From Catajapyx aquilonaris (Eukaryota), in the NCBI GenBank assembly GCA_000934665.2, contig JYFJ02000715.1, positions 1-64,000 of the forward strand: a DNA stretch of 64,000 nucleotides, given 5' to 3'. Below are positions 3,669-60,316 of this stretch, in pieces (the first letter of the stretch is position 1; every line of letters starts with the position of its first letter). The notes below the pieces were generated by a model that made no database searches, was not told where the DNA came from, and saw nothing but the letters and a program-made list of their open reading frames with translations. A program made the position numbers and the translations under genes.

Positions 3669-6600
3669 ATGCTGGACGTGACAGCTTGCAATCTTATCAA
3701 AATGGATGGAAACTACCTAAAGGTGAGATTTCATCATTATTCGGAGCATTATATTTAACATCATATATACCTATAACGCATGTTTTTTAAAACCAGGTTA
3801 CTGGTAATGCGGTTCAGCCTCATTCCATCGCCAAGTGTAAAAGGGAAAATCAATCACAAGCCATCAGCAGCATATCGTCTATAGGCATGCCAATCGAAGG
3901 TAATCCTAACTTCTGCAGGAGAAATAAGGGCATCCTCGACGACTTCCATGTGAGTTACATGTTTTATAATGGTGCTCTCGTAGCTCTTCTCGTGTAACCT
4001 ACATTATTGTATTAATAATAAAATTTTCACTTTCAGAGGATCCAGAATCAGATAGAGTGCCATATTAATGCTAGGTTTTCACATTGCAACGGCCGACCTA
4101 CAATAAGCCCCCCAGGAAATAACCCGGTAAGTTTAGTACCCTACAAAGAGTAATTATTATACAGGCATCTTTGCATTAAACGCAAGCCTATATACATGTC
4201 ATGAAGGTTGTGTCGCATGAGTTGTGATGTAATACATAGTACAAGGATTATTGTTGCAGAGAAAAAATATCATTTCAAGAAAGACTGTATATTCTCAAAT
4301 CCTATATAATTATTCGATCAAATTTCTTTTAAAGAATTCGGTATGGATTTTTTATATATTCAATGTTCAGTACGGAATAGATGACGCACTATAACTTTGG
4401 CTAGGTTGAAAACAGCGTTAGTCGCAGATCCATCAGCTGATTTTCTTATTTTTTTACGACTTTCGAAGGGTCTGTTGTTCGTGAGAGTTTGCTACAGATT
4501 CTCTCAATTCCTACAACCAAACTGCATCGGCAATGACATATGGTTGATAATGTCGGGCCCCTCAATTATTATTAAGTTGTTTCCATTTCAATCCTGCGTA
4601 GTCACTATTCATCCAGAAGATGCAGATGTTCCAGAAGCCTAGCAGACCAAGCTCCTTAGAAATAGACCCGAGGGTCAAGTTGCCAGTAATCGTCAAAAAG
4701 TGCCCCAAGCCCACCCCGCATCCATTGACAGTCTTGTCCCTGCGACCGGGCAAGGAACCTCGCCAGGTGTCACAAGAGGCAATGCCAAGCTTAATGGGCG
4801 AAGAGTTCCACGGCAGGTCGCAAACTAACACGAGCAATCGAGGCACTAATCGTCGGGGAACTAAAAAGTCAGCCATTACCACCAAGAAGAGCTCAACTGT
4901 CCAACCCGTGGCAACCAGGAAGACGCTCCCAGACTACAACCTTCAGGTAAAGACGTCAGTACCTGAACGGACAACGATGCAAACTGTGGTGAGCTGCACC
5001 ATTCCATCAGAACCCGTCAAAAAACTGCCCGAAGTGGAAGTGGTCAGCAAGAAGAGCCGTCCAGTATTCCTGCCCAAATTCTGGACCGAAAAGCCAGTGG
5101 AGGTGACAGAAGACTACAATCAGGAGTTGAAGCAGAAGGCTATCGAACTGCCGGAGGTAAATGTGTTTCATTCAATTAGTTTCATGACTTGATTCGATGC
5201 GTGTATAACGTGTGGTTGCGTGTTTTGATAAAATTCCAGACAAGTTGGCTTCCCAATAAGCGTGACGCTAAGCTCCCCATCACGTATGCTCGTCCTCCAA
5301 AAAAACGTGATGATCATCATGGCAAACACTTGGACGTTTATGGCAAGGGCTGCGTAATACATATTCCAGAGGGTCACTGGAACCACCTATCGAAAGAAGG
5401 CACCTTCGACCCTCAAATTGTTAAGTGGCACGTGTACAGAATTTTCTTGAGGCAATGCAAGGACATGGCTGCTAACACGAGCACTGTTGCGACATGCGTT
5501 CCGTCTGTGGACAGTTTGAGGACGCGTACGGCCGGGACAGGATCTCCTACTACTACACCAATGAAACCCGTGAACCCCATAGCCGTTTTCTCAGCAGCAA
5601 TTTTGATCATGACCGATGAAATATCCGGGGATAGGACCAACACACCTGCTCTGAACAGTATTTTAGCTTTGAATAAGGAACAGCCCGCTGATCCCAAGTT
5701 CTACAAGGCGAAGTGCAGCCTGTCCAACTTCATAAGGGAATATCTGCAAGTGTTTAAAAAGCGGATCGTTTATTGGGCTGAGAGTTACGAAAACGTATTC
5801 CAGTACGGAAATGAGCTGAAGAAGTCTATGGCCGTCGACGCTTTGCTGCGAGATTTGGTCGATTTAGACGTGCAGGTAATGAAGGATGGAGAGTGTGGGG
5901 TGCTGCAAGCAGATATTGAAGGCACTCCGGATGACGATCGGCACGTATTGACATATCTGAGAAATTTCTCCGGAGATATAGAAGAGCAAGATAAGTACGT
6001 GGTTGACAGTTACGTCGGCAGACGCTTGCAACATTCAGTGAAGAAAGTTGAGAAGTGGCTGGATAAATTCGGCAGGCGTATAAAGGTGGAGAGTCTGGCT
6101 GCCTCAGAAGCAGCAACGGAACATAGAAAGGAGCAAACCGCAGGATATGAAGATGGATATGAGTGCAAAGAGATTGTTGTAATTGATGTAGACAATTATT
6201 CTGAGAATGAACGAGAGGAAATATGTAAGCGTATGAATGTCGCAGGCGTCGCCGTGATGTCCCCCACGAATGTTCAGACACAATGCTATTTGAGAACAGG
6301 CATGTCATGTCCTACTGTTAACATGGTGAAGCCCAAGAAGGTGATTGATATTATGCAAGAGAAACCTCTTACTGATCAGCCAAAGAAGGTGATTGATATT
6401 ATGCAAGAGAAACCTCTTACTGATCAGCCAAAGAAGGTGATTGATATTATGCAAGAGAAACCTCTTGCTGATGATCAGCCAAAGAAAGAGACGACATCAA
6501 GCCCGGTAAAAGTCAGAAAGAAAATACTCCGAAATTCATCTCCCGCGAGAGTGAAAAAATCTGCACATAACATGGTAGAAGACCTTGTCCGTCAGTTGAT

Positions 6601-6982
6601 GGCGGATTGGCATTCTTCCAACTCGGATCAGTTTGAACCATTGGAGATTTGCACTGGCAGTGCGACAGACGAGCCAGTTTGGGACGACGAGAGCGTCATT
6701 CAGTCTTCGGAAATGTGCCCTGCAGTAGAGCTTGGAAAGAAGAAGGTCATGGCTTGGTTAAGTAATCACGATATGCAAATGATGCAACCACCACCATATT
6801 TGGTAATAAGCCTATTTTTTTATGATGTGGGAAGTTTTAATCAGCATGTCTGTTATATATTAATCAATGTCTTTCTTTTTTTTCAGTCACAAGAATATGA
6901 AGATTCTGATTTCTCCTTTTGGGCATATCCAAGGAATCGGAAGAAGCAGCAAACAACCCTTGCCAAATGTGAGAAGAGATAA
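3669..6982 (+). CDS. Uncharacterised ~836-aa protein with an internal 16-aa tandem repeat
   Basis: Exons 3669-3722, 3797-3949, 4037-4126, 4602-5156, 5240-6802 and 6887-6982. All five introns are GT-AG and phase 0, and the frame stays open, including a 1563-nt exon. I do not recognise the family. Confidence 0.75.
6332..6487 (+). repeat. Coding tandem repeat, 48-nt unit x3 (PKKVIDIMQEKPLTDQ)
   Basis: Three nearly identical copies of ccaaagaaggtgattgatattatgcaagagaaacctcttactgatcag; the third carries an extra codon. Confidence 0.95.
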
Positions 6983-7359: not shown

Positions 7360-8919
7360 TCACTGATGCTCTTGGAACTGCGCGATGATAATGAGGAATG
7401 TAAAGCAAGCATTCGCCATCTGAAATATATAAATAACTGTAAGAAACTCATCTCCTTAATATGTAATGTAATAACACTATATTACCGAAATGACGATCCC
7501 GCTTCTAACTTTGAAGAAGGAGGCTGATATCTCCACCTCAGGATGAGTCATTTTAGAGACCAAGGAGTGGATTTCCAGCTGACTTCCCAAATCAAGTGTT
7601 GACCTCTCCAAACCACGTACGTCGTGCAGGGTTGCGGTAGCCTGTACCAATGGTATTGTATCAGTCGCAAAAGCATATTAATATATTATCATAATCATAT
7701 CATGACATAAATTAAGGCATGCTTACAGTAGGGCACTTTATGTAGAGGTGTCATTATTTGGCCTTCAAATAGTATATTACACTCTCTCTTATGTGGCAGA
7801 TGCAGTCTACGACCCATCGCCTCGCCTTATGTTAAATCATAAATGGGCAAGGCAATATGGTTCGGCTGGGTGCATAGTCAGGATATTATTTTGAAAGACA
7901 CTGTATTATCTCATTAATGAGGCTGTCGAGACCAAATAATACCTCTACAAAAAGTGACAGTTTGATTCTCAATTAACACTAGAAGTTTGTGTAGTACAAC
8001 ATACCTCATGTGGTAGTCGCTCCAACAAGCACGTGACAAGCATGAGGATGGTCACTTTGGTAAAGAAAGCATACAAGAGAGCAGGTATTGTGGACTGAAG
8101 AGAATACCACAGCATGTGTGTAACGGTAGACACTACAATCACGAGTGCGTACAGGTAAGATATGGCCACTGACAGTCCATAGCACCTGTTCACATCACTG
8201 ACCAGGTCGCACAGCTCGTCAAAAGCTCCACTCATCTGGGCCAATCGTGGTGGTACCTTCCAGAACTTGAGGTGCTGGACGGTGTTCAGCGAACCGTACG
8301 CACGAGGCATACTTGCTACTACCTCGCGAATGGAATTGTTGACCAGCTTGAACCTCATTCGAATTGACTCAGAGAAGAAGACCACATGCATCAGCAGTAC
8401 GAAGGGAGCATGGCACATGATAAGGTAGGGCACCATGCCTAAGATGGCACCCATCCACGATGATGAATAATTCATGTGGTAGAACACACAGAGTGATATT
8501 GTTATCAGCAAGTAATACACCAAAAACACTACGGTCACTGCAAGAGTAACCTTCCTGACCCGCCTGTTGATATCACCAGTTCCTGACAGGATACTGTCAA
8601 AGGCTTGAAATTTCTGAAATAACAGGTGTATCCTTTCGCCATGGCAGGTGGTAATGAGAGATATGCTTACAAAGGTCAGGGTCACAGTGAAGCATGCGTT
8701 GATGTCAAGGATGTCCCCAACTGTTCCAGAAGTGAAGCGGAGCCTCCAGAATCGACCGAAGGCATCCCAGATCACCATCACAGTCAGGTACAGTACTAAA
8801 GAGGCATACCGGACAAATCTTTTGCCAAAAGTTTCTTTTGGGCGGGGATGAAGGCGGCAGAAAATTCCAAAAAGACGGGAGAAAATGGCCAGAGGCCAGA
8901 ATGAGTCATGAATGTCCAT
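7360..8919 (-). CDS. Gustatory receptor (7TM chemoreceptor, GR family), ~376 aa
   Basis: Exons 8919-8005, 7641-7486 and 7419-7360 with phase-0 introns near the 3' end, as is typical of GRs. Multiple TM segments. N-terminus FWPLAIFSRLFG; C-terminus EISASFFKV...TFLIIIAQF matches the GR TYxxxxxQF motif. Confidence 0.9.
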
Positions 8920-11900
8920 GGCAGAGCAGAGGACTGTTATCTTCTTGAGCTGCCCTAGTATTTTACATGTTGCTTTCAATCCATTTCATTATTTAATCAT
9001 TAATCTAATGGTTGACTTGGTGTTCAAAGGCACACCCTGCTCTCTGAAGATTAATGGCAAAGTCAACTGTTCCATCACCAGTGAACTTTTCAATAGGAAT
9101 TAAGGTTTGATGACAATGCTGGGAGTGGGAGTATTACTTGTCACTGCATTATTTATAACAAATGCCTGTGAATGTACGAATATGTGTGCTCTTAATGCTA
9201 ATCAATATGGAGCACTCTACAAATGCCCAGCAAGGTTCATGGACATATTGGATTTGACTCCCAAGGTCATCTAAGCTCACGTGAACATAAAATTAGGCCA
9301 ATAGCTGTTAATACTGACTGTTAAGCCTCAAGGAGTCAAAAGATGAATGTTTAATGAAGTTCAAAAGTGTTTGTTGAACCCAAAAATGTACGCAAGGGTG
9401 ATAGCAGATTTGGGCTGTAAGGTTATCCGAAGATTGTGACAACTAATTAATCCCGAGAAACTGGAAATCATTTCCCTGACCACAAAATGCATTAAACACT
9501 GACTTGCAAAATAACATTGTATATGTATTAAAATACAAATGTATACTTTTAAAACTCTTCATTTATTGAAGAATAATTCCTATAAGGTTTAGTGCAAGAA
9601 TCCGCCTTGACCTGCTCCACACACAACTTACAGTAGCTACACAATAACTCTGGACGTGTTGCTTTACCACTAATGTCTTACTCGTCTTACTCATTCTGAC
9701 CAATATGGGTTTCACATTATTGAAGAGACCATTGCAAGTCTGTTTAACGGCTAGGAGAATCTCAAGATAATTGAAAGGGCCAGAGTTACCATGTAACTGC
9801 TGCAACAAGATACATAAATCACTGGACACAATTTTCGTTACATTATAACCTATATGACACACTATTTACCGACAGTAATAAATGTCTGTTCTCCTGGATG
9901 CAAACAGTATAAGTATCCTGTGGTATATGATCGGAGACTTTCATGTGTGTATACTGCATGTCTCAAAATTTAGTTCAATGAGGGCCATTCTCAAAGCAAA
10001 CCGTCATGAAATTATCCTGGAAGTGACCAGTGGAAACACAAAAAAGCCCAGTCAGGGCGGTTGATAGAAGGATTCAAACACAGGATGTCCCAAACAGCCG
10101 ACTCTACATTAGACTCAGCCACCGCGGCATCGCAAGCACTTCATTTGCTACAGCCACTCTCAGTGCATGGTCTTCCTGCCTGCATTATTGTTGCAATATC
10201 ACACTCTTTTTCTACCTTTGTATCCATAAGAACAGACTCTAAGCTACGATTTGCATACTGCAGCAGGAAGTGATACCATAACCCGATGTGAAAAGGGGCA
10301 TAGGTAGGCAAGTGGTGCCTAATGGCCTCTAGTGAATTGGTTAGTGCCTGCAAAGCATGCGCCTTCATCACACTACATCCACCCATTGCTGTAATCCTCT
10401 CTTATTCATTAGTTGTTTTTAAAATGCCGACACTACCTTTCCTCGGGAGGTCAGCAAATCACAGTCCTACAATCACATTAATTATTTTCTTGACTTTACC
10501 ATGACTTCCTCCGATTCCAATGAGTGAGAGGGCACATCAGTGAGCAACGAGCAAACTACTGCATTGCAGGGTGCAGTAATCTATGCAATGAGTAATTTTT
10601 GTAATTTGAAAATACACATTCAAATGCCATGTATCGCACGGTTAATGCCACATGTTTGATGAACTTATTGCCTTCTTCTTATGCTACAAGCAATCTCTTT
10701 TACCACAGTTTACAACCCATACTTTGCAGGGTTAACATATTGCATTCCACATAATTCACACTTATTGCACATGGTGGACAACACTGCAGGGCATCCCAGA
10801 ATGTCATGCAAAGCTAGAAATAACAGCTGCGCCATCATTTGAATGTTACCATTTGAATGTGCTTGTCATTGGTAACCAAGGTTTATTTTAAGGAATTCTT
10901 GATGTAATCATATGCTACAAATCAGTGGTACTACAAAAAGCAGTCAAATTCCTACAAGTATTATGAATGTCTTCGATGATTCCTTCTCATCAGCTACAAA
11001 TACAAATCATCATCTAAACTGAAAAAATCAATTGCATTATAAGTTATGGCAATAACACATTGTTAAATACTGTAGCATATACTGAAGTTAATGTTTTGAA
11101 AAGTACAACCCATAACTAAATACCCTCGAAGCATGACTTTTTTTGTTGCATATTTCCAATAGATATTGGAAAGTAGAATCACAACTTAATGTAGGCTACA
11201 CTTATGAAATACTGGATTAGTGTATAAAACTGGAGAAAGGACTAATGACTTAAAATATTGACACTCACGAATAGACTACACATAAACATATATGCAAAAA
11301 CAAAAATAATACTTTGGCAAATTAGCTTGACTGAAAATTGATATACCGTAGAAATACACCGACAATGAATCCCAGGCTATAACTTCATTTTTTCAACACT
11401 ATTTTTAACACATCACATTTGCATTAATGTAGTCTGTCTGACGAATCGTTAAATTGTTAATATAAGACTATTAACAAAATTGCTTTCCTTATTCAGTTGA
11501 GCAATTGAATGCAATATTGTGCACATTTTCTGGCAATGCATGACAGTCCTGGAACAGCCCCGTACATTCAATGTAACACTTACGACCTACAATGAACATG
11601 GTAACAAAAATAAATATCTGATTTACCGAATAAAATGAATGCCTTGTGACTACAACTTTGCATGTGGTACATCATATACATACTATACACACAGGAGGAA
11701 TACCATGCGACCTGTCTGGTTTTCCACATATAACATGCCATTTTGCACTTGAAGTGACGTCTCACACCACGTGATGGATTTAGACGATTACGTGAGAGTT
11801 TAAGCAACTTCCGGGCTTTCAATTGCACTCTTTGTAGTAATAATTACTGCAACACAAAAACAGATCTGATGAGATCAGGCCAGATATTTTTAAAACTGAA

Positions 11901-12210
11901 TTTTAAAGGAATTTTACTGACCAGTTCCACAAAACAAATTGCGCAGAAACAAATCACACTGCTATTTCTCACCCGTCACTTCCAGATTAGATGCAAGATG
12001 GCACCTTGACTAAATGAAAAAGACAGGCACATAGTACATCTCCCTGTCACACACAGAATGAGACAAAACATCATAACGTATTTTTTATCACTGGAAGAGC
12101 ACAAAATTTTCATTTAGGTGTGTACCTGACATGGCAATACTTTCCAATCAAAATAAGAGACCAAGAAGACATTTTGTCTCACTCCTAATATGACATCCGT
12201 TTTATGGATG

Positions 12211-13200
12211 CTAGTCATACGAGTTGGGTGCGATGTGTCCCCCAACATAGATGTTGTCGTACAGATGACCGTAGAGATCATCGTCAGGGTGGTGGATGGC
12301 ATGTCTCAGGTTTCGAATAAACTCTCGTTTGGACATCTTGTTCTTCACATGTGGACTCGAGAGGTCCACCGAAAGGAGAATCAGGGAGAAGCACACTATG
12401 TACACTGCATCTGTGATAAAAAAAACAAGTGTTAATTATCCAATTCTCTCCACACATAGCACACTGCCAGATCATCATGCTGAGAAACTAATAATCCTAA
12501 CCTGCTGTGAGTCCAAGCTGCGGGTTGCACTCAATAAATCTTTTGGAGAACCTGTCAAGCATGACTTGAAGGTACTGTGAGCGGTCATTGGGAGCCTGCA
12601 GTTGAGTGAAGAAGCGGCGAAGAGCATTAGGCAAGAATTGGTTTTCGTAGTTGTGCAGCCTGACCAACTCGTCCAGCACATCCCGACGTGATTCGAGGTA
12701 CGTCCGCACCTGGCGGCGGTTCAGAGCACAAGTCTGGTGCAAGAAGAGGGCCACCTCTTTGCAATCGTCCGACACCAGGTTACGATGATGGAAATAGGCC
12801 ATGCCCTAATTAACAAAACGTGGTCAATAGTAAAAAAAGGTAGTGACGCAACAATCGGTGAACTTACAGCAAAACAATCGGCATTGAAGGTGAGCGACCC
12901 CTCATCTAACCACATGTAGAGTTTCCTGAACGATGGGCAGTCCGCTCGTGGCATGTCCCGATAGGCAGTGACATGACCCCACTGGTCCTTGCACAAGGTC
13001 TGCCACAGCACCTCATCTTGCGCCAAACCTTCCCACACACACGCAGCCAGGCAGAGGTCAGTCGCATTCAGATGGGACAGAACGGCCAGGCTCAGCTCCG
13101 GTGGCAGCTCGGCCAGATCCGGAAACTTCTGAACACCCCTCCGACGACTCTGAACCGACTGATGGTCGGGCTCTATCAACCGCCGGATGGTCTGACCCAT
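12211..13200 (-). CDS. FBXO8: F-box only protein 8 (F-box + Sec7 domain), 278 aa
   Basis: Exons 13200-12868, 12805-12502 and 12410-12211. F-box FPDLAELPPELSLAVLSHLNATDLCLAACVW; Sec7-like LPNALRRFF...FSKRFIECNP and DAVYIVCFSLILLSVDLSSPHVKNKMSKREFIRN. Probable 5' UTR intron 13234-13514. Confidence 0.95.
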
Positions 13201-13559
13201 ATTTAGAACTGATGACCGCTAATCAGGTTACACCTAACGGAACAAAAAATTAAAATCAATACACATGTTTCCGTACACCGAATGGAACTAAAATCAATAC
13301 AATCTGGAACATGCACTATGGACAATTACATGTGTTACATTAAAACAACCTCAATTTAGGAACATAATTTCTGCAAAATTTTTGCAAAAAACGACGCACT
13401 TTTTTCGAACACCCACATACTTTGAAACCCTCTGTGTTGTCCCACAAAAGTGATTGTCCTTTTTATATACAATTACATGGTGAGTGTACAGTCATATTTG
13501 GGCAGTGTAATTACCGTCTCATCACTACTTCCACGTCTCCTGAAACCAGCAAACGACAA

Positions 13560-13830
13560 ACACATTGCAAAGAATAATAATTCGCAAGAAAATAAAAAAA
13601 ATCGGGACGAAATCAAAAACAAAGATGGCCGCCATAATTAAAGTGCGTCGAACATTCCGAATTTCTTTGGCTATCTCTCTAAAATTTTAATTTAATCAAA
13701 TACTAAAATACGTCACCATCTGATCACATTTTGATATTAAAATTAATAAGTTTAATTTGCACTGGATTGGCTACACTGCGACGTCGAACATCCGTCGAAC
13801 GTCATTATCAGGTATTGCGTCTTTTTATGT
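13560..13830. promoter_or_regulatory. Putative bidirectional promoter between FBXO8 and the FBA F-box gene/CEP44
   Basis: Lies between divergent 5' UTR splice donors (13514 on -, 13907 on +). Contains a YY1-like AAGATGGCCGCCAT at 13622-13635. Confidence 0.5.
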
Positions 13831-13990
13831 CACGTTCTAATGACATGTCGGCCGGCTAAAAGTAGTTGAAATAATTACACTTGGCCTAAAGTTGACAAGA
13901 AGAACGGTAAGATTATTATCAGTACGGTACTTACAAAACTTGGATAAGGCACAACAAGTACTGTACATTAAATTGGTGGGTGTAGAGGCA

Positions 13991-14812
13991 ATGCTGGCTG
14001 CGGTGAGGTCCTGGATGCGGCCTGAAGCAGCTGCGACCACAACTGGGCTGTCCATTAACAAGTGGTTGCCGCCTGAGCTGATCCTGCACATACTGAGCTA
14101 CGTGGATGCCCAGACGTTGGTGTTTAGCTGCCGACTTGTTTGTCTGCAGTGGCGTGGAACCGTGGAGGATACGCAACTATGGCGGCTTCTACTGGCACGA
14201 TCTGGAGTGCAGCTGCCGAAGCTGCCGAGGACCGCACCGCACTGGCCGGTGTACTACTGGATTGCACAGAAGGCGCCGTTCAACCGTAACCTGATATGGA
14301 ATGCATGCGGTGCGGATGGATTGGATGGCTGGACCATCCTGCAAGACGGGGGCCACCAGTGGAAGGTGGAGGATCCGCCAAGCGGGGCTGATGCGGTTCC
14401 TGAAGAAGTTGGGGAGACCATGTGCTTTGCGACTTCATATGGCCCATGCGTGATGGAGCAAACCGTTAACTTGTGGAGGGAAGGATTGGTTCCGTTCTTG
14501 CTCGATTCGCTCCAGCCGGTCATTGCGGTCTCGGAGTTCAATGCAGCGCGGTTTGATTGCGGGTGTGTGTACAACATGGGGGCGCAATTGCTTGATTACC
14601 GTGGAAGAGTCATTAAGGAGATCGGGGTCGACAGCAGGACTGAGCAGTGGCTTGGAAAGGAGTGGAAGAAGGAAGAGAGGAAGTTTGAGGACTATGGGAA
14701 AGGCGTCAAGGCAATTCGTTTTGTACATGGCGGTCAGGACACGCAGTTTTGGGCAGGGCATTACGGGAGCAAGATGACTGGAGCTTCTGTCGTTGTCTTG
14801 CCACCACAGTGA
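13991..14812 (+). CDS. FBXO6: F-box + FBA (sugar-binding) protein of the FBXO2/FBXO6/FBXO44 family, 273 aa, intronless CDS
   Basis: F-box LPPELILHILSYVDAQTLVFSCRLVCLQWR. FBA hallmarks RNLIWNAC, DGGHQWKVE, CFATSY, ARFDCGCVY and FVHGGQDTQFWAGHYGSKMTGASV. Exact orthology within the family cannot be resolved by eye. Confidence 0.9.
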   Translation: MLAAVRSWMRPEAAATTTGLSINKWLPPELILHILSYVDAQTLVFSCRLVCLQWRGTVEDTQLWRLLLARSGVQLPKLPRTAPHWPVYYWIAQKAPFNRNLIWNACGADGLDGWTILQDGGHQWKVEDPPSGADAVPEEVGETMCFATSYGPCVMEQTVNLWREGLVPFLLDSLQPVIAVSEFNAARFDCGCVYNMGAQLLDYRGRVIKEIGVDSRTEQWLGKEWKKEERKFEDYGKGVKAIRFVHGGQDTQFWAGHYGSKMTGASVVVLPPQ

Positions 14813-15707
14813 ATGAAAGAAATTGTATTGGAATCACTTGAGGTCAAACATGATCGAGAAAAAATGCTTATTAAAAGGGGTTGTAAGATCTCGTAGGTGC
14901 TTAATGTTGTTCTGATAAAATCAATGCATTTGTTGAACATTACTAGCCAATTTTCTGAGTGATGTGTGATGGCAAGTGAATAACTGATGGCGACATTTGA
15001 TTTCTACAAGTAAATATCTGAATCTCATGTTAAAGCTATGTAATTTACTGGAACTAAATTGTGTGTGAAAATTCATGTTTGTGTCATTTGGTCAAATTTT
15101 CACTCAATATGTCTCATCACTACAATTATTGCCAATGCGAAAGTGTAAGTTATGTTGTTTTTTTTTTTCATTTGAGTTGAAAATGTATTTAGCTTCTTGT
15201 TCTGCATTTTATGCAGCATGTGTCATTCATACTAATGCGCTTTATTTCCCATTTATCATGTGTTTCGCAATGATGTGGCTTTATCAGCAATTGTTCGACT
15301 CGACATTCTGCTGATAGGCAGAAAATAATGCCATCTACGATGTAAAACTAGCTTACAACTTTGAAAATGCCTTGGGAAGTTGCGACTTCTCAGCTCATTT
15401 TGGTATATTGCATTGTTGTAAACATAACCTGTAATAAGAGGTAGTATTAATAGGCCTTTGCAGCTGTAATAATTAATTTTTGAATAAATTATTATTATCA
15501 GTTAATGCTGCATTCACGACTTTATATGAGCCACTTTTTTTTTTTGCACTCCTAAGCAGTCACTGTATTGTTCATGGTTGACGTAGTTACAAGGTTTGTT
15601 TGTTGTTTTTTTGACTTGACAGTGGTGTCTATGTCCATGTTTGGGCACAGTTGGGGCATTCATGTAATGTTGATCATCAAACATTACTTTCCAGCCATAT
15701 GCAGCCA

Positions 15708-16629
15708 ATGGATACCTTGCGCAATGATCTGAAGAAACTCTACAGAGAACTCCTCAAGCTTGGCCATGAAGCTTCAGACGACACCATAGCAGGGTAAAGT
15801 CAGATTATTAGTAGTATGTTAGCCTTGCTGACGTATCAATAAAATTTGTGGCTTCTTCATGTAGGTTGTAAGCTCTATTGTCTATTCAATATTATAAAGG
15901 TGCGTTTACATGTAAGTGATTTGACGAGCGAAGTGTTCGCCGAGCAGTAACAGCGTTGAGTAACCCAAGTAACCAGTATTGTTTGAGGCGAAAATCGATT
16001 GTTACTTCCACCTGTTTCTCCATTAACCTATATGCATCTCTTGCTTTGCAGTCTTGCAAGTGGAAATCCTGTCCACTATCTGATCGTGTTCTCCTACATA
16101 TGCAACCAATGCGACCCAGTAATCCGTCAAGAAATCCGCGATAGCACATGCGAGACCATCCTGTACGACATGTGCCAAGCTGGTCAACCTGGAGTCGAGG
16201 CCCTCTACAAGGTTATGTACGGGTTCTGTCACATGACACCCATCATAGTCCCGCACCAGTTTATGATGAAGAGGTTTGCCCACCACAAAGTTCGCATGTG
16301 TATTAAACTCATGGAAGTGCTGAGGAAGAAGGAGAAGAAGTTCAAACCGCAGATTAAATCATCAGTGTCGACACCTGGAGACTCTGCGCCAAATCTGGAA
16401 ATCACCGGCACAAAAGCTATCAGCTGTGTCCTGGAGGATCCAGTGAAGCTGCTTCAGGTACGCCACACCATTTTTGTCTGTACGGCAGGTGTTTGTAAAA
16501 CCCTTGTCTTTTTTTTGCCTGCAGCGCTCGCTGTCTCAGATGTCTTTCGAAATGATGTCGGTGAACAACCACCTTGAGCGGATCGAGCATCAACTGACCA
16601 TGAACGGCGACCCTGTGATTGTAGACTAG
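15708..16629 (+). CDS. CEP44: Centrosomal protein CEP44-like, short form (~198 aa)
   Basis: Exons 15708-15793, 16052-16457 and 16525-16629 join in frame. GLASGNPVHYLIVFSY and VEALYKVMYGFCHMTPIIVPHQFMMKRFAHHKVRMCIKLMEVLRKK align by eye with the CEP44 N-terminal domain as I recall it (human GLIKGDPAASLPIISY / [46 protein letters not shown]). Short C-terminal coiled coil. Confidence 0.8.
15899..16007. mobile_element. PIF/Harbinger (Tourist-like) MITE, family C, partial, in CEP44 intron
   Basis: Begins GGTGCGTTTACATG and shares internal sequence with the copy at 32604. Confidence 0.6.
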
Positions 16630-16787
16630 ACCTGATTATGCATACACAACAACAGCTGATTAAACAAGCATTGCGCATACCATAGTTATAATTTACCCCA
16701 TCCAGTAATGGCAGGAATGCAAGCTTGGCGTTTCAAGTCATTTTCGTGCCTCCTCTATGCAAAAAATTACATGGCATACTTTATACA

Positions 16788-16790
<3 letters not shown>

Positions 16791-16850
<60 letters not shown>

Positions 16851-17104: not shown

Positions 17105-17630
17105 CATTTAAATTGTCTGGCAACCTTGGGGCCAACTGGTAGTGTCATATCGTACTACGTCCAAGAGGGAGAGGGAGGACCGGGCAGTGTTGCCAAATAT
17201 ATGATTCCAATTTAAATTGATTGGCAACCTTGGGGCCAACTGGTAGTGGCATATCGTACTACGTCCAAGTGGGAGGTGGGGAGGACCGGGCAGTGTTGCC
17301 AAATATATGATTCCAATTTAAATTGTCTGGCAACCTTATGGGGCCAACTGGTAGTGGCATATCGTACTACGTCCAAGTGGGAGGTGGGGAGGACCGGGCA
17401 GTGTTGCCAATATGATTCCAATTTAAATTGTCTGGCAACCTTGGGGCCAACTGGTAGTGGCATATCGTACTACGTCCAAGTGGGAGGTGGGGAGGACCGG
17501 GCAGTGTTGCCAATATGATTCCAATTTAAATTGTCTGGCAACCTTGGGGCCAACTGGTAGTGGCATATCGTACTACGTCCAAGTGGGAAGTGGGGAGGAG
17601 GACCGGGCAGTGTTGCCAAATGTATGATTT
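17105..17630. repeat. Tandem array, ~103-106-nt unit x5
   Basis: Unit ccaatttaaattgtctggcaaccttggggccaactggtagtggcatatcgtactacgtccaagtgggaggtggggaggaccgggcagtgttgccaa(ta)tatgatt, starting near 17105, 17207, 17313, 17418 and 17521. Confidence 0.95.
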
Positions 17631-18930: not shown

Positions 18931-21900
18931 ATGTCGGCTGAGTCCCCCCAGCACCGAAGGGGGAGCAAGCCAGCTGGCCATGTCATCAGGCCACAGCCGG
19001 TCAGCGACAAGTCATTCATCGAGAGTGTCGCTGGCTTTATTAACGAGGTCGTGCCCCAGGTAGGTTGCCCTGACGATCAGTACAGAGCAGACGTGATATG
19101 TCCGTTGTATTTCAGGCGTACACCGGCCTTCCCCAGTCTGATACAAAGGACTCGATAACATGGGCACGCTTTGAGCAGACCGACGCCAACGACCCTGCCC
19201 TCTGTCCTGACCCGTCGTCGGACACTAATGATCCTGCGCCTCCGTTGTTGCTGACCCTTGGTTACACCTCTGGAGTCCAGGTGTGGGCCATACATTCAAC
19301 GGGGGAGGCCCAGGAGGTGTTGTCTTGGCGGCAAGGGGTCGTACGCACCCTCCGGCTCCTACCGAGTCCGGAGCCCATATTTGGAAACCCCGATACCTTT
19401 GCTTCCAGAAGACCACTAGTAGCTTTGTGTGACTCAGGGGCTGGTTCACCGCAGTTTTGCAGCTTGTCCTTTGTGTCGCTGCGGACAGGTGATCAGGTAA
19501 ATATCCTTCAATATTCTGGAAATGCCATTCGAAGAGGATTAATTGGACGGTGTTATTAATTTTTGGAAATTTTGAAATTACAGGTCAAGAGCATCAAGTT
19601 CAAGAAAGGGATAAGTGATATTGTGGTGTCGAGACGAGTTGTTGCGGCAACGTTTCCTGAGAAGATAGCTGTCTTTGATGCATGCACCTTGGAAGACCGG
19701 TTTACAGTTTCGACGTGCTTTCCCAGTCCGGGTCCGAACCCAAACCCAGTTTGTCTTGGATCTCGATGGTTGGCCTATGCAGACAAACGATTGGTACCTG
19801 CCCATCAATCCGGAGGTGGAGTTGGTGGAGAGTCATCGCAGTCATACACTGCGACGATGATCCACGCCGCAAAGACATTTACACGGGGCCTCAAGGAACT
19901 TGGGGAGACTGTCGCCAGCAGTTTGACTGGACAACATGCTCGACAACAATGCGGGCAGACCCAACAACCAGGCACAGTCACTATACTGGATGTGCGACGA
20001 GCAGGTCGTGGTGATGTGTCAGTCGATGATTCGGAGGGTGTCATTGCCCATTTTGTTGCTCACTATGCTCCAGTCACGGCCATAGCGTTTGACCCCTCGG
20101 GCAACCTTGTGTTGACGGCAGATCGGCAAGGCCATGATTTTCATGTCTTCCGAATTAACCCCCATCCTCTGGGTCCTGCTTCAGCTTCTGCACATCACCT
20201 GTACACATTGCACCGTGGCGACACAACTGCAAAGGTACAGGACATATCCTTCAGTCTGGACTCCCGTTGGGTTGCTGTGAGCACCTTGAGGGGTACCACG
20301 CACCTCTTTCCAATAACCCCCTATGGCGGTGCTGTTGGAGTGAGGACGCACACTACACATCGTGTGGTTAACCGTCTGAGTCGCTTCCATCGCAGCGCAG
20401 GCTTGGATGATGCACCGTCTTCTGGTCGCAACTCACCAATTGCAGTGCCTGATACACCAACGACAGTCATACCCTATCCGAATCCAAGGCTGCCTCCATA
20501 TCCCTACCCAACTCACCTAGCACCACTGGCACAGCTTCGGCAGCCCTTGCTGCTCACTCTACCGCAGCCAAGGAGCCCTCTGGTACGTGAACTTCATCTC
20601 GTAATTTGAGGAGTTACATACTCTGCATATTTGAGCTCCAAGTGTGCTTCCCATTGTCGTAATTCCATGTGGAAGGCCGCGTTTACATGCGAGCGATTCA
20701 CTGAGCGATGTTTGGTAGCGAAAATTCCCTGCAAACAATTGGATTCATCACTCAGCGATGTTCATCGCTCAGCTAATTGCTCGTTTGTAAATGCGGCTTA
20801 AAACACATCTGATCAGATTATACCTGTTGGGGCTAATTGTAATTGGTCAAATCCTTACACGAATGTTAATCCGACTGATATTGTGCAGGTGGGTAAGCAA
20901 CGTACGACGGACACGGACACGGTGCAGATGCGAGTGGTGTCCACGTTTGCGTTCCCGCGGGCCTGGGTTGTGGGTAGCCCGACTGGAAGCACCCGAGAGA
21001 AGACCCAACGCAAGCCTGTGGATGCCTTGTTTGTGATGGCTTGCCATGGAAGCCTGGTTGAATACACCTTAGATCCACACGTATCTCCAAACGTGCAGAA
21101 AGACAAGATATGTGATGACTCCCCAATCGAGCTTGAAGTCAAGGCTAAGGCTCAATGGAATCTTCTGCGGCCTCCCATGACCCCTGAGCTGCAACCACCA
21201 CTGCTGTCTGGCAACCCACTCCTGATAACCCAGCCGTCGCCTGTGGTGGCGGTGGTCGAGTCGCCAGATTCCCGTGAAACCGACTCGGACGAGCGATGGT
21301 TGTCACAGGTTGAGATAGTCACGCATGCAGGTCCACACCGCAGGCTCTGGATGGGTCCGCAGTTCAGCTTCAAGACATACCATCCGACTGCCAGGTATGA
21401 ATTTCGTATTCATCAGCATAACAGCCTGATTAAACGTAGCCCAAATGATGACCTCAAACTTAACAAATTTCACATTTCCAGTGACCCTGATGGGACTGAG
21501 GTGACCCCTGGAGGTAATCGTCTCAATCGCAGCAATCCTGTCAACATGCCTGTGACCACTTGTGGGTCTGTGGTTCCAGTGCTTATCGAGGCGGGATCAG
21601 GAAGTAATGCGAGATTTAATAATATTTCAGGGCATTAAAATGTTCGAGTCGATTATTTTCATTGAACCAGTTTTTCTTGCCAAGTACAATTTCGTACATT
21701 TTCCGTTTCTAGGTAGCTTTGAGCAGTCACCACAGTTGGTGGAGGTCTTTGGTGACCACAGCGGGTACTACAGTTACGGGAGTAGCGGAGGGATGTACGG
21801 AGGTGGCAGAGGGAGTGTCGGAGGGGAAGGGAAGGAGGTGGTGGACACCCAGCTGAGAGAGAACCTGGCCGAAGCGATGATGGAGAGCTGCGGTATGATC

Positions 21901-26083: not shown

Positions 26084-29000
26084 TCACCTGACAGTACTCT
26101 TCCGCAGCTTTGCGATCCACTCTTTGCACTCAGGAAGGATAAGCTCGGATGCTTCCATGGCAGCGCACAGTTGTCCCAACTTCTTCGGAAGGTCTTCTGC
26201 AGCATCAATCCCAGACGCCAGCGTAACCAGCTGCAATACACTAGTTTTGCAAACCAGGTCGGTGCAGTCGGGGATTGCGTTTCGTATGGCATCGAAGTCG
26301 CAATCCTCACTGCCGCTTTCCTCGGGCGGGTCAGTCGCATTCGGCCAAACTGTGCCTAGCCAGGAAGCCAGCCCCTGCGTGTACAGCTGTTTTGCTTGGA
26401 CATCATCACTGGGTCTGAACGGCAGCAAAATCCGGCATATTGAAGTAAACAGGGGTGTATCTTCGCAACAACAAATAGCTTTTACGACGACCTGGAGAAG
26501 AAAAAATTCGTGCACAGTTAGATTGATAATTGCTCTGAAGCAAGTACTGAGTTTAACAGCGAATGTCCCACAGATCATGACCACTTGTGAAGCTTAAACG
26601 CATCAGCCGAAGCAGAGCATTACCTCGTCATCTGTACAATCTCTCGACTTGCTCAGCAAACCCTGGCATATTTCCTTGCTGGCTTGAATCAGTTTCGCAG
26701 CCAGAGACGTTTGTGCTCCTCGTCCTGGCGTTGGAACCACCTTTGCCAGCAAGTTCACCATCTCTTCCTCATCGACGTTGAACTCCTGCAGCTCCGTCTT
26801 AACCACTTCTAACCAGGGCTTTCCGTCTGGTTCCAAGCAGCCGTAGTCCGCACCAGGAATGGGTCTAGGTAGAGTGGTCATGCGACGAGTGAGCTTTTCG
26901 TGCACTAGGATCAAGGGATCGCAGCAAAGGATTTCCGGATGGTGGACTTTGAGACTTCTGGCCATTTCAAAGTCCAGTTTTTGGAGGCAGTTGGTGAAGC
27001 AGAGGAAAGCGATTGCGATTGCTTCTTGGGGAGATCCTGCTTTCTGTGCTAATACCGATGCCAGCTTCAATGACGAATTGTCACCGACTTTCATGAGGAG
27101 AAGGTACGCTTCTCGAAGTTGTCCCAGAGCAATGTGGCTGAAAAAAAATAGACAAATTTTGTTAAATCACCGCACCATCATTGCAATTTCATGTCTCACC
27201 ATTTGACGCCAATTTCACTCTGCCCCGTCAACTGAGCGTGATGAATATACTTCCTGTAGAGCTCTCCGATGAGTGGATCCCCTTCAGGCAACCAATTACG
27301 AGCCATGGCCACTGCCTCCCGGCACATTCCCTTCTCCACTAGACCTCTGGCGGCACTCTCCACCTTTCCTGCCGCCAGCTTGTACATCGATGCCTTGACG
27401 TGCTCTCCTTCTTCCTCCAGTTGATGAGCATAAGATTCACACATTTCCATCCAAAACTTGCGTGATACTGACGGAGCCAGTGTCACCATCCACTCCTCGA
27501 GATGTCCGGCTTTGTTGGCCGTCTCAATCGCTTGCTTCAGATCACCTAAGGTGCAACAAGGTTATTTACACATGTTGACATCATTGTGTTCGTCATGTAA
27601 AATCTGGTTTTGCGACTAATAATATTTTACCTTTAAAAGCTCCAACTTGCACGTATTGTTCCCATACATCGTGATCTTTATGTGCCTGCATTTCCCCATC
27701 TAATGTGCGAGCCAAATCGCCATGGTCTTTTGAGAAGAATCCTAAATTCATGAGTTCCCCGGTGCCGATATTTCCTTTGCCTTCGTCCTCCAGTAGCCTG
27801 TACATTGCCTCTTGCACCACGGCCCTGCCTCGGCAATCAAGCGTGGAGCATGTGGGAAACAGGCTGCGTTTCTTCAAGTATCGATTCTTGGCCTCGTATG
27901 ACATTACGCCAATCTTGGTGTAACTCTGCCCAGGTCGTTTCTCTCTCGGATCTGATTGGACATCCGGATGTTTCTCATTTGGAATTTCTTGGCAATCTTC
28001 ACTCGGTTTTCCTTGGGTTTGAGTAACGCCAGAGGAAACATCGCCTTTCTTCTCTCCATTCACAGCCTTCAGTGCATGAAACTTCTTCTTGCCGGTGAAC
28101 TTTCCATCCTTCTCCTTTTGCGTCAGCTTCTTTTCTAAAATGAGATGGCATCAGTAGCAGGCAATTTACGTAGACCCATTACATTAAAAAAAAAAGAAAT
28201 ATCACGATGATCCCTCGCAAAGTGGCTTACTTTTCGGATCTGGCAGTGTCCTCTTCTGCTCCGACACACGCCAGACGTTGATTAAGAAGTCATCACCACC
28301 AGTGATCACCAAATCTGGATCCAGTGGGCTCCATATTCCGCAGAAGAGTCTTCCATCGTGCCCCTGAAAGTTCGCGAGTGGCTTCCCTTTGATTGCGTCC
28401 CACACTTGAGCCGATGCATCGTACGAAACGGAAAGAAGCTGTCCTTCAACATGTGGGCTCCACTGTATCCGTGCAATCTGGTTTAAGTGACCCTCCAGTG
28501 TCACAGTGCTGCGGGTCACCAATTTCTCAGTGTCACCACCGCCAAAATGAGCCGACAAATCGTACACTTTGATCACACTGTCCTTCGACGCAACTGCTAC
28601 CCAGTGGACGTATTGGGAAGGCTGCTCGGATGAAGAAAGGTGTTGCGGATGCCACTTTACACCTTGTATTACTTTATGATGAGCTGCTAATGTGCACATT
28701 AGACGGAGGGTCCTGCAGTCGTACATATCGACGACACTAGAACATCAGAAGAGGTAACATGAAGCACACTCGAGTCGTCTCGTTTCAAGTAAATTCTGTT
28801 CATTCACGAGTAAGTAATGTACATTTTAATCGGATTTAAGTGATTAAATTGGCCCGTTACTCACCCCAGCTCAGTTCCAACTGCAAGGACATTCAGCTCC
28901 GAGTTCCAGATCAGTTCGGACACATGCAGCATTGGCATCTCCGGGTTGGCTTCCCTCAACTGACAATCCAAGGACGCGGCATCTGTAATATGCAAATGTG

Positions 29001-30829
29001 ACTCATGAAATCGGCAGCTGACAACTTGGGAGTTAACTTACTCTTCTGCGGTTGACTCGGATCAAAAATGAATCCCTTCTTTCCGCAACATGTGTAGAGA
29101 AGCATGTTTGGTTTCTGGTTGCCCTCGTCCTTTTTGTATGGAAACTTTGGCGCCCAAGTGAGCGCATAAACCATCCTGGAATGATGCGCCTGGAAGATGA
29201 TCGGAGGCTTGTTGTTGCAGGCCAACACGTCGTGGATACCAACACGACCTTCCTCGGTCCCAAACGCAAGCCAGGACTCACGCCACGGGTGCCATGCAAG
29301 CTAAAAAAAATTTCATATTAATACGTAGTAGCCGAGCGGAAATCTACAGTAACTCACCACAGTGACTTTCCCTTTGATCCCCTGCCAGATTGAGGCTACA
29401 TCAGCTATGTCCTTTGACGCCATGTTCCACACTCGGATTATGTTGTCTCCGACTCCAACTGCTATTCTACTCGGATCAATCGGGGATGGCATCAGATCAT
29501 AGACGAAACCACCGATCGTTGGAATCTTGCATACGACTTTGGCACTCTTTGTATCCCAGATGACGATAGACCTGCCGAAGTAATTGGACGTTAAAATAGG
29601 AGTCGTAAAAGACCTTAGTTATAACATGATTGTTCGCAAATGAACTCAGTTGTGTAAGGCCGCATTTACATGTGAATAATTCTCTTTGTTTGGGATGAAA
29701 GTACTTTCGTCCCAAACAAAGCGAATCGTTCACATGTAAACACGGCCTAATTATGATCCATCTCACCTATCCTGAGCCGCACTCCATACCCAGTGGGTCG
29801 TACCGGAGAGATTGAACAAACCCCTTGCATGTTCTCTGTGCATTGTGTTGCATCCTTGTTTCGGTTCGTTCCGCATTTTGAAGAGATCCCAACGAAGCAA
29901 CTCGCCGTCAATCCCACTCGAGTACAGAAACTCCGGCTCTTTCCACACCAGACCGAAGAACATGGTGGCATGCTTTTTCTCCGTTGTCGTCTTTAGCTTG
30001 CTGATGGGCAAATCGATAATAAGGAGAGTGCGGCCCTGGGTGGCGGACCACACTCGGATCTGCTTGTCACGCCCAACTGTCGCAAGTAGGAGAGGCTGAC
30101 GTGCCTCGGGGACAGGCTCGGCTGGTTCGGTTTCTTCAGGGCGGAAGACATCACGGGTGACTGGACACCATGTGACGGACTGGACATCCTGGTTGTGGCC
30201 TCGCATACGATGGATTACATCTCCAGCTGTGAAAATATCACAATGGCGTAAGTAACATATGAGTTTTCACGGATTTCGCACTTACTGTCGACGTTCATGA
30301 TGTATACAAGCCCTTTCTGGCACCCAAATGCCAGCCAGTGTTGCCTGTGTGGGGAGCACTGTATGCAGTTAATCGCCTCCTTAGGGAATCGGAAGAGCTT
30401 ATGCGCGTTCTTCCTCAGGTTCCACCATACGATGGTACCGCCATCGTCGCCCGATGCCACATAATTGGGGTTGAACTGGGACCAATCCAAACAGTAAACG
30501 CTGGTCTTGTGAGCCGAGCAAGCCACGACTTCCTTGTTGTCCGAACCCCAAACACGGACCAGCCCATCCTCCCCACCCGTGACAATCCGGCACTCGTTGG
30601 AGCCTCCAGGCTCAAAACACACGCAGTTGGCTCGACCCTCGTGGGTGTAGTACAACACCTGTACTTGCGGTAGGTACGGTATGGTCCTGGGCTGTGCGGC
30701 CAGGTCCGGGTCATAGGTCAAGATGACCACATGCTGACGTGACACATACGCAAACCTGTAGTCCCCATCAGAAGCGGTTGCATTGCTCAAGTACCAGTTG
30801 GACGAAGGTGGAAAAGTCATCAAACTCAT
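26084..30829 (-). CDS. GEMIN5: Gem-associated protein 5 / rigor mortis (WD40 + TPR-like region), ~1290 aa
   Basis: Exons 30829-30286, 30226-29767, 29571-29358, 29300-29042, 28982-28865, 28736-28231, 28134-27631, 27545-27200, 27137-26624 and 26491-26084, all phases compatible. Hallmarks FPPSSNWY, PTIGGFVYDL...IAVGVGDNIIRVWN, WQGIKGKVTVLAWHP...LAFGTEEGRVG, SVSYDASAQVWD and MVTLAPSVSRKFW. The last exon may instead splice at cag|gtgagg near 26088. Confidence 0.93.
29658..29747. mobile_element. Harbinger-type MITE, family C (GEMIN5 intron), near-perfect hairpin
   Basis: TAA|GGCCGCATTTACATGTGAA...TTCACATGTAAACACGGCC|TAA, with a 3-bp TAA duplication. Confidence 0.85.
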
Positions 30830-30863
30830 CGTTGGATCTGCGGGTCACCTGCAATGTAACCAA

Positions 30864-32094: not shown

Positions 32095-34003
<1,909 letters not shown>

Positions 34004-36431: not shown

Positions 36432-37798
36432 TCAAACGTGATGAGAACTTCCTCCAGTGGTTACAGCATTGGTGTACCACTCGGGCAGGATAAGATCGTT
36501 AGTCTCTTCATATCTCTCCGCCGTGATTATGGGTCTGTTGGGACTCCAGCTGAAGCAGTAGTGCACCTTCGGGCTGTCAGTTGTCACAACCGACTTCACA
36601 TACTGGAGGAACTCATTCAGAAAGGTCATACAGACGGTCGGATCCCAGAAGTCCTGAAAGTGACAAATCTTGTAGTTTACGTAGCTTGGAAGGCAAGAGA
36701 AATTGGAAGAGGCTTTTACCTTTCCTTGGTTCGGAAGATCCGCTACGTCCACCTCGCCAACTTCATGGACCAGGCCGTCGTCATCACGCAAGCCACGGAC
36801 TATCTTCGTCACACCAACAGTAGTGCACTGGGCCCACCACTTCATAATCTTATGCCTGTTAAATATTTGTAAATTTTAATAGGCTTGCCTACAGTTTTAG
36901 AGAAGTCTGGCTCACCTTCGGTATGTAATGTCCTGTCCCCTAGTTTCAATAACTCGGGTAGTCTTGGCTTCCACAAACTTGTTGCTGTATTTCTTCACGA
37001 CATCTAATTCGGTAAGAGTTTCTCTCGACTCAACGCCATCCATCTCAGCCGCAAATAAGACTGAGCAGGTGGCTATTCTCGTGGTAAAAACGCAAGAGAA
37101 CTCCTCGTTCTCGTTTACAGGTACGTTCGTCTTGGGCTTGCCGTTAGCATCATCTGAAAAACACAATCGGTTCATGTTGACTGCAATTATGAACCTTGAT
37201 GAGTCGCACCTGTGAATATGTACTGCTCGAACTTAAATCCCCAAGCCTGCATGGCCTTCATCCTCTCGGTGTCATGCCGTCTCGACTTTTTCTTCTGCTC
37301 CGTGTCCATGGCGAACAAGTAAATCGTGCCGAGGAACATCGACGCGCAGATCTTCCATCCCTCTTGTTGCTCATACGGTGTGCACATTACTGCTGTCAGC
37401 AGACCTCGGTAGCACACAAACTGTGGCAGAAATCTGACATATTTCGATTAGTAAATCATCCGGTACGTTTTTCCGGTAACGGCTCACCTCTGGCATCCTT
37501 CAGGACTGCTGAAATGATGCCTCTTGGCCAGAATCCAGCGCAGAATATGCTGAAGCCCTTCCCTCTTGAGATCCGCCGTGTCCTTTTTAATCGCAGCGTC
37601 TATCCCTTGCTGCAAGTCAAGCGGTTTTGCCGGCACCTTGTTGTAATCGTAGTACTTCAACTGCGACATGTCCTGTTGAAACTGCCTGGCGCCGTTCAAC
37701 GAGAAGCATCCGAGCAATGAGGGTCGACATGTGACTTCATCTCCTCGGTCCAAATAGTAGCTCGGGTGATGCACACGGTATGGTGACACTAAATCCAT
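36432..37798 (-). CDS. DXO: Decapping and exoribonuclease protein DXO / Dom3Z / Rai1 family, 376 aa
   Basis: Exons 37798-37488, 37433-37210, 37153-36916, 36855-36720 and 36653-36432. Motifs FVCYRGLLT, WGFKFEQY, EFSCVF, AEMDG...EAKT and KWWAQC...GLRDDDG. Confidence 0.95.
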
Positions 37799-59966: not shown

Positions 59967-60316
59967 CAGGGAGCATATACTACATAGAGGCGCAAACTTC
60001 TGTCGGCGCCTTTGATGTTCGCGTCTCTCTGTTTGGGGCCGTTGCCAAGGCTGGCGGCCATTTTGAAGTGTGGGGAACGCCAACGAGGTATAAATAGGGT
60101 ACAGGCAAAAATAGGGTCCGACATCTTTGATGGTTTTGGCGGCCATGGCAAGAACACGCGCGAATCAAAGATGGCGGACCCTATTTTTGCCTGTACCCTA
60201 TTTATATCTAGTTGGCGTTACCCACACTTCAAAATGGCCGCCAGCCTTGGCAGCGCCCCAAACAGAGAGACGCGGAAATCGAATGTTTGCGCCTCTTATG
60301 TAGTATATTCTCCCTG
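59967..60316. mobile_element. Foldback MITE, family B (P/Galileo-like), 7-bp TSD GTACTAC, opposite orientation to the 32921 copy
   Basis: GTACTAC|CAGGGAGCATATACTACATAGAG...CTCTTATGTAGTATATTCTCCCTG|GTACTAC. The central spacer is the reverse complement of the one in the 32921 copy. Confidence 0.85.

Follow-up and report, generated by a model that had tools for sequence, protein, structure and literature searches.

Does the divergent arrangement of FBXO8 and CEP44 in a present-day arthropod preserve a gene pair of bilaterian age, and could a shared promoter be what has held the two genes together? The question is raised by a stretch of Catajapyx aquilonaris DNA 64,000 nucleotides long (GenBank assembly GCA_000934665.2, contig JYFJ02000715.1, positions 1 to 64,000; hereafter "the window"), for which an initial annotation had described FBXO8 on the minus strand and a CEP44-like gene on the plus strand, diverging from a short promoter. 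The reading favored here, to which we give a probability of roughly 0.65, is that of an ancestral divergent FBXO8-CEP44 pair served by one intergenic region, with an intronless F-box gene of the FBA type nested in CEP44 intron 1 and sharing the first exon of its host.

The left-hand member of the pair is straightforward. An FBXO8 orthologue is encoded on the minus strand at 12211-13200, with the following parts.

13200-12868, minus strand: FBXO8 exon 1, coding part; first base of the ATG at 13200; carries the F-box (Pfam F-box-like, 34 bits); GTAAGT donor after 12868
12805-12502, minus strand: FBXO8 exon 2; Pfam Sec7, 61.9 bits, profile positions 19-117; contig record 4 spans 12502-12805
12410-12211, minus strand: FBXO8 exon 3; end of the Sec7 domain, 45 bits; stop codon at 12211-12213

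This three-exon model, obtained by combining Pfam matches on stop-to-stop open reading frames (ORFs) with a splice model, yields a protein of 278 aa with an F-box and a Sec7 domain, the architecture that, to our knowledge, defines FBXO8 among animal Sec7 proteins. Residues 1-278 align with residues 1-279 of the 279-aa F-box/Sec7 protein P0108 at 85% identity, which, together with the domain scores, bears out the earlier placement of FBXO8 on this strand. Database matches to the Sec7 exon all contain Sec7 (16 of 16), nearly all contain an F-box-like domain as well (15 of 16), and the two that are named are "F-box protein 8" and "F-box only protein 8-like." The F-box precedes Sec7 in one protein of the ~280-320 aa class, and FBXO8 proteins, rather than members of other Sec7 families, are its nearest relatives. 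The 91-nt intron is borne out by a cDNA-like contig with the joint 12410>12502, and an in-frame TAG can be read 21 nt 5' of the ATG. FBXO8 is an ARF6-directed receptor of the Skp1-cullin-F-box (SCF) ubiquitin ligase.

RNA evidence throughout comes from contigs of one public run (X1), whose library type is not on record; because they contain four GT..AG joints, these contigs derive from spliced RNA. They also cover about 1.7 kb (10500-12069) on the 3' side of the FBXO8 stop at a depth of 3-16, and the sole minus-strand AATAAA lies at 10887. This RNA is either a long FBXO8 3' untranslated region (UTR) or a separate transcript.

The right-hand member is less easily recognized. It was described as a plus-strand gene split into fragments in the ORF track, visible once spliced and encoding 198 aa, and that description holds: three coding exons with canonical splice sites throughout encode a protein of 201 aa, or 198 aa if translation begins at the second Met. 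The transcription unit is laid out as follows.

13877-13906, plus strand: 3' end of the non-coding first exon of CEP44, apparently common to the F-box/FBA mRNA; 5' limit at or before 13877; donor GTAAGA preceded by CG
13907-15694, plus strand: CEP44 intron 1, 1788 nt; contig joint GT..AG; acceptor ending in TTTCCAG; encloses the whole F-box/FBA gene
13991-14812, plus strand: F-box/FBA gene, a single exon within CEP44 intron 1; ATG at 13991, stop at 14812
15695-15793, plus strand: CEP44 exon 2, where coding begins; ATG codons at 15699 and 15708; contig joints at both ends
16052-16457, plus strand: CEP44 exon 3, holding most of the CEP44 domain (Pfam PF15007)
16525-16629, plus strand: CEP44 exon 4, coding part with the stop; contig joint 16454>16522; transcript extends to at least 16650

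When the protein is compared with the CEP44 profile, the check that the initial annotation had proposed, exon 3 alone matches PF15007 with 36.7 bits against a cut-off of 27, over profile positions 26-122 of 126. An exhaustive HMMER pass through 1.84 billion representatives returned one match to this exon, P0107 (E 1e-3), which is itself a clear CEP44 (156 bits on PF15007); residues 7-131 of the spliced protein align with residues 6-125 of P0107 at 33% identity, and the alignment runs unbroken over the exon 2/3 junction. A word-based search for CEP44 relatives found none, and an Atlas look-up placed CEP44 clusters in its top three positions (0.91, 0.90, and 0.89) at a recognition value of 2178, under the 2300 mark. 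The evidence on nearest relatives thus consists of one database match (E<=1e-3) and a low-recognition look-up. The protein is divergent, and the plus-strand gene is accepted here as a probable short CEP44 orthologue. CEP44 localizes to the centriole lumen and has a role in centriole-to-centrosome conversion. An ATTAAA is present at 16659, 3' of the stop.

Repeats are found in and just beyond this gene. A short repeated element occupies 15894-15994 in CEP44 intron 2, where many X1 contigs match only the element and have unrelated flanks; six loose contig ends fall there, and the summed depth reaches 78 in the bin 15960-16169. Just 3' of CEP44, at 16790-16850, comes a perfect (TAA)20 microsatellite, and a tandem repeat of a 103-bp unit (4.9 copies, 95% matches) extends from 17106 to 17619.

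Between the FBXO8 and CEP44 coding regions lies a complete intronless F-box plus FBA gene (FBXO2/6/44-like; 273 aa and a stop) that the initial annotation had not reported. Its description of the pair as head-to-head therefore survives for the transcripts, which do diverge, but not for the coding regions, which this gene separates. The ORF matches the Pfam FBA profile with 182.7 bits over positions 3-175 of 175, in addition to F-box-like (39.2 bits) and F-box (31.6 bits), and the order of F-box and then FBA domain is that of the FBA-type F-box proteins FBXO2/6/17/27/44. At E<=1e-10 there are 106 homologues, bearing the names FBXO6, FBXO44, FBXO2, or FBXO27; the best relatives are FBXO44/FBXO6-like proteins of Orthoptera and Blattodea, at only 47% identity. 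This gene, and not CEP44, is the nearest coding neighbor of FBXO8, whose ATG at 13200 is 2.5 kb from the CEP44 ATG at 15699. The placement of the F-box/FBA gene in CEP44 intron 1 means that one promoter region is flanked by genes for two SCF substrate receptors. FBA-type F-box proteins and CEP44 are not known to be functionally linked.

How these three genes are transcribed is addressed by two contigs. Contig 6 (661 nt, depth 26.4) is composed of 13877-13906, 15695-15793, 16052-16457, and 16525-16650; because it joins 13906 to 15695, the first exon of the CEP44 mRNA is non-coding and ends at 13906. Contig 5 (1518 nt, depth 17.9) runs unspliced from 13877 to 15394 and covers the F-box/FBA gene, whose mRNA appears to share the CEP44 first exon and to read through its donor. 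The two contigs have the same start, 13877, exactly 30 nt 5' of that donor, an offset that an assembly graph with k=31 would be expected to produce at a branch point. Together they wholly explain the depth in the bins 13860-14069, 15330-15539, and 15540-15749. No ATG can be read in the sequence between 13877 and the F-box/FBA ATG at 13991, and an AATAAA lies at 15483, within CEP44 intron 1 and where the end of the F-box/FBA mRNA would be expected.

A mechanism consistent with these observations can be envisioned. One CpG-enriched region of no more than ~0.68 kb would drive FBXO8 leftwards and the shared first exon rightwards, the two rightward mRNAs presumably beginning at a common transcription start site (TSS). 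Splicing from 13906 to 15695 would then remove the F-box/FBA gene and yield the CEP44 mRNA; if splicing did not occur, cleavage near 15500, directed by the intronic poly(A) signal AATAAA at 15483, would yield the F-box/FBA mRNA. Choice of product would accordingly be a competition between splicing and polyadenylation.

The same contigs admit another interpretation, in which the true divergent partner of FBXO8 is the F-box/FBA gene, CEP44 has a promoter of its own in 14813-15694, and the 13906>15695 joint comes from minor read-through, the resulting conjoined transcript being without regulatory significance. The F-box/FBA ORF is indeed the coding sequence closest to FBXO8, read-through splicing between tandem genes is common as a matter of general knowledge, and the 880 nt that separate the F-box/FBA stop from the CEP44 ATG would accommodate a promoter; moreover, a single contig carries the joint, with 29 nt on one side. 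Yet CEP44 exon 2 has its 5' end in one contig only, and that contig carries this very joint, continues unbranched through all CEP44 exons, and is deeper than the F-box/FBA contig (26.4 against 17.9). The exon also opens with a strong acceptor 4 nt 5' of the CEP44 ATG, which suits an internal rather than a first exon. No contig lies at 15395-15693, the interval in which one would look for a proximal first exon or 5' UTR, and so no proximal CEP44 start is seen; none lies at 13230-13876 either, and such gaps in cover prove nothing by themselves. On balance, an independent CEP44 promoter seems unlikely, and a first exon common to CEP44 and the F-box/FBA gene remains our preferred reading.

Several properties of the transcript data nonetheless count against that reading. 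The exon-1 side of the 13906>15695 joint measures only 29-30 nt, under the 31-letter rule, and the joint comes from a single contig of a single run of unrecorded library type. The 5' end of FBXO8 is almost bare of contigs (depth 1.0-1.6, then 0), and the starts of all three genes are placed from ATGs and contig ends, not from mapped TSSs.

Within these bounds, the region from which the genes diverge can be delimited as follows.

13201-13876, no strand, 676 bp: intergenic region, presumed bidirectional promoter; no X1 contig at 13230-13876

The divergence gap is at most 676 bp from the FBXO8 ATG (13200) to the contig start (13877), provided that there are no further upstream exons, and is an ATG-to-contig and not a TSS-to-TSS distance; the end of the CEP44 first exon at 13906 is ~0.7 kb from the FBXO8 ATG. 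By the contigs, the CEP44 transcript does begin beside the promoter region of FBXO8, and the interval 13600-13800 that had been proposed for the promoter was a fair guess. The region is low in G+C, with CpG enriched in its right half (observed/expected 1.83 at 13561-13906 versus 0.76 for the window). A palindromic AAGATGGCCGCCAT element occupies 13622-13639, and all three copies of CGTCGAAC in the window fall at 13646-13800 (0.66 expected). Allowing at most one mismatch, AAGATGGCSGCC occurs six times in the 64-kb window against 0.38 expected, one of the sites being that at 13622-13639. We take the palindrome and its AAGATGGCSGCC-type relatives to resemble the YY1/Pho-type site AAnATGGCGGC. The CpG enrichment and motifs would fit a promoter and are no proof of function; FBXO8 and CEP44 are likely to share one.

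The other AAGATGGCSGCC-type copies form two opposed groups, at 33059-33175 and 60053-60242, each about 100-190 bp across. These groups near 33.1 and 60.1 kb may mark further divergent promoters, at sites in which Pfam found no domain.

The nested arrangement calls to mind the cholinergic locus, in which ChAT carries the intronless VAChT ORF within its first intron, both mRNAs arise through several promoters and alternative splicing, and the layout is conserved from nematodes to mammals (PMC3053374). Here, likewise, an intronless F-box/FBA ORF (13991-14812) lies in the intron of a same-strand host (13907-15694), and the contigs of both products share upstream sequence at 13877-13906, an overlap of 30 nt in one run. 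The two cases differ in that the products of ChAT and VAChT act in one pathway. With the F-box/FBA gene nested in CEP44, the cholinergic type of layout would have a second, unrelated representative, and an intronless gene that shares the first exon of its host would, if confirmed as such, provide a simple natural model of how splicing is weighed against intronic polyadenylation. As an addition to the pair itself, a nested exon-sharing F-box/FBA gene is a mildly unusual feature.

Is the pair itself ancient? The initial annotation had stated that FBXO8 and CEP44 are neighbors in human, and adjacency in vertebrates is supported by a 2026 paper, in which the retained neighbors of gnathostome hand2 are listed as hpgd, cep44, fbxo8, scrg1, sap30, and galnt7, with cep44 and fbxo8 side by side (PMC13756586). 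Human FBXO8 and CEP44 also have consecutive Ensembl identifiers, a hint only of neighborhood, and rose together in one human-cell experiment (log2 fold change [log2FC] 1.72 for CEP44 and 1.58 for FBXO8), again no more than a hint (PMC5989213). For two given genes in a genome of ~15,000, the probability of adjacency by chance is roughly 1e-4, so coincidence is unlikely to account for adjacency in both this arthropod and gnathostomes. The loci are alike in that both orthologues stand side by side. They differ in the length of CEP44, the arthropod protein of 201 aa being about half the length of the human one (~390 aa), and in the F-box/FBA gene nested in the arthropod CEP44 intron 1. None of the other genes of the hand2 neighborhood was recognized among window ORFs of at least 75 aa (bHLH, SAP30, HPGD, and GALNT domains), a search that short exons would escape.

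Anciently conserved divergent pairs are a known class, to which one more member would add modest weight. Conserved ancestral microsyntenic pairs (CAMPs) are enriched for the 5'-5' orientation, which accounts for ~55% of those in human, often with short intergenic regions, according to Irimia et al. 2012 (PMC3514665). As in CAMPs such as HSPE1-HSPD1 (PMC3514665), the present genes are unrelated, adjacent, and divergent, are separated by a short intergenic region, and are presumably regulated together. Conservation of FBXO8-CEP44, by contrast, is documented in two lineages only and is contradicted in several metagenomic ones. A literature search found no paper treating FBXO8 and CEP44/KIAA1712 as a conserved or bidirectional pair; the pair list of Irimia et al. 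2012, which lay outside this search, may include it.

An alignment of 12 FBXO8 proteins, run against metagenomic contigs, gave access to these lineages and yielded 80 loci, distributed over six groups of related sequences and 39 singletons. Many of these loci are cDNA-like and have no flanks. The Pfam survey of neighbors covered 512 ORFs at 12 representative loci: 282 on the minus strand (at least 35 aa, within 5 kb upstream of FBXO8, 11 loci) and a further 230 on both strands (at least 70 aa, 7 loci). The divergent neighbors of FBXO8 are as follows.

Group A (25 loci): none seen
Group B: CEP135 N-terminal exon, ~1.1 kb upstream of FBXO8 at four of six loci, the other two having too little flank (PDB 7BJI, E 7e-42)
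Group C: axonemal dynein light chain (Pfam PF10211), ~0.7 kb upstream of FBXO8 at four of four loci, one organism
Locus L033: family-2 glycosyltransferase
Locus L031: RNase T-type exonuclease
Locus L079: nothing recognized

The CEP135 exon of group B lies at 4609-5382 on the minus strand of L070, with counterparts at L068, L069, and L072, and has ~95% amino-acid identity over the four loci. The dynein light chain of group C lies at 8507-9230 on the minus strand of L075, with counterparts at L028-L030; the FBXO8 of this group and that of the window have their Sec7 intron at the same position (profile position 117/120). Group A comprises several related species, and its conserved blocks are exon-sized only.

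The outcome of this survey counts against the favored reading. Pfam detected CEP44 in none of the 512 ORFs from the 12 FBXO8 loci, although a divergent CEP44 of short exons could escape such a search; the same ORFs were also without an FBA domain (0 of 512). A tblastn comparison of the window CEP44 and P0107 with all 80 loci gave nothing at E<=1, full-length P0107 producing one chance-level match (E 7.3), and phmmer with both CEP44 queries against 18 upstream ORFs gave nothing under E 0.098. Group A is without a conserved block in the 5.7 kb that separate a same-strand trypsin-like gene from FBXO8 exon 1. At groups B and C, L033, and L031, the divergent neighbor is clearly a gene other than CEP44. 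Blanks in metagenomic loci do not show that CEP44 is absent, except where another gene fills the space; even so, the FBXO8-CEP44 pair is clearly not kept everywhere. Because it is not generally maintained, the proposal that a shared promoter has held it together is weakened, and promoter sharing is a putative cause of retention. To this may be added that the head-to-head (divergent) orientation of the human genes at 4q34 is a presumption.

These results invite the suggestion that the adjacency has separate origins in arthropod and vertebrates, owing to chance or convergent rearrangement and not to descent from a bilaterian ancestor. The FBXO8 loci surveyed outside the window have no detected CEP44, several have other partners, and the partner of FBXO8 evidently varies between lineages; an fbxo8-like gene is reported beside the single amphioxus hand gene, and cep44 goes unmentioned there (PMC13756586). 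Independent origin must, however, meet a chance of ~1e-4 that a given pair is adjacent in a second genome, lower still if the orientation is the same. Hundreds of ancient pairs, mostly 5'-5', have been documented (PMC3514665), and losses in many lineages are the rule for them. Independent origin accordingly appears improbable, somewhat more so than a separate CEP44 promoter. Common ancestry is the most economical reading for arthropod and vertebrates and a plausible one: FBXO8-CEP44 linkage would be an ancestral 5'-5' microsyntenic pair that was retained by this arthropod and jawed vertebrates, other lineages having lost or rearranged it.

The identity of the alternative partners raises a further question, whether FBXO8 has a centriole or cilium role, as the initial annotation had suggested. 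Centriole/cilium genes (CEP44, CEP135, and the dynein light chain) are the partners at three of the five FBXO8 loci with an identifiable divergent partner. If perhaps 5% of genes belong to this class, three of five would arise by chance with a probability of ~1e-3, a figure that reflects a small count made post hoc. In mouse multiciliated tracheal cells, however, Fbxo8 is not induced, with log2FC values of 0.39 and -0.53 at ALI+4 (air-liquid interface culture) and 0.95 and 0.17 at ALI+12 (adjusted P 0.78-1.0), while Cep135 (3.7, 3.6) and Dnali1 (4.4, 4.2) are (PMC3534086). Because mouse Fbxo8 is not induced, simple co-regulation of FBXO8 with ciliary genes is argued against, and a centriole or cilium role for FBXO8 is speculative. 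Ten papers that mention both FBXO8 and cilia came up in a literature search, none of them relevant to judge by its title. A broader conjecture would be that the FBXO8 promoter has repeatedly come to stand back to back with centriole/cilium genes (CEP44 in this arthropod and vertebrates, CEP135 and axonemal dynein light chain in one metagenomic lineage each) because of an unrecognized functional or regulatory tie between SCF-FBXO8 and the centriole/cilium programme, which here would take the form of a three-gene unit in which the F-box/FBA gene, riding on the first exon of CEP44, competes with it through splicing versus intronic polyadenylation; we regard this as a long shot. A persistent link between FBXO8 and centriole genes, if true, would nevertheless be a testable lead on a poorly understood protein.

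The surroundings of the locus can be described briefly. By Pfam on stop-to-stop ORFs, the gene order in the window is gustatory receptor (-), FBXO8 (-), F-box/FBA (+), CEP44 (+), BCAS3 (+), Gemin5 (-), and DXO/RAI1 (-), the outer members being placed as follows.

7972-8985, minus strand: 7tm_7 gustatory receptor (Pfam)
19074-21635, plus strand: BCAS3 (Pfam)
26606-30844, minus strand: Gemin5 (Pfam)
36435-37828, minus strand: DXO/RAI1 (Pfam)

The gustatory receptor gives the window an arthropod-like character. BCAS3, Gemin5, and DXO/RAI1 have few, short introns, which, alongside the FBXO8-CEP44 region, indicates a compact genome. Beyond 38 kb, no Pfam domain was recognized among ORFs of at least 75 aa. 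At the other end of the window, a 600-codon open frame at 5180-6979 on the plus strand, with no Pfam match, holds a threefold PKKVIDIMQEKPLTDQ repeat and could be either an orphan gene or a piece of a mobile element.

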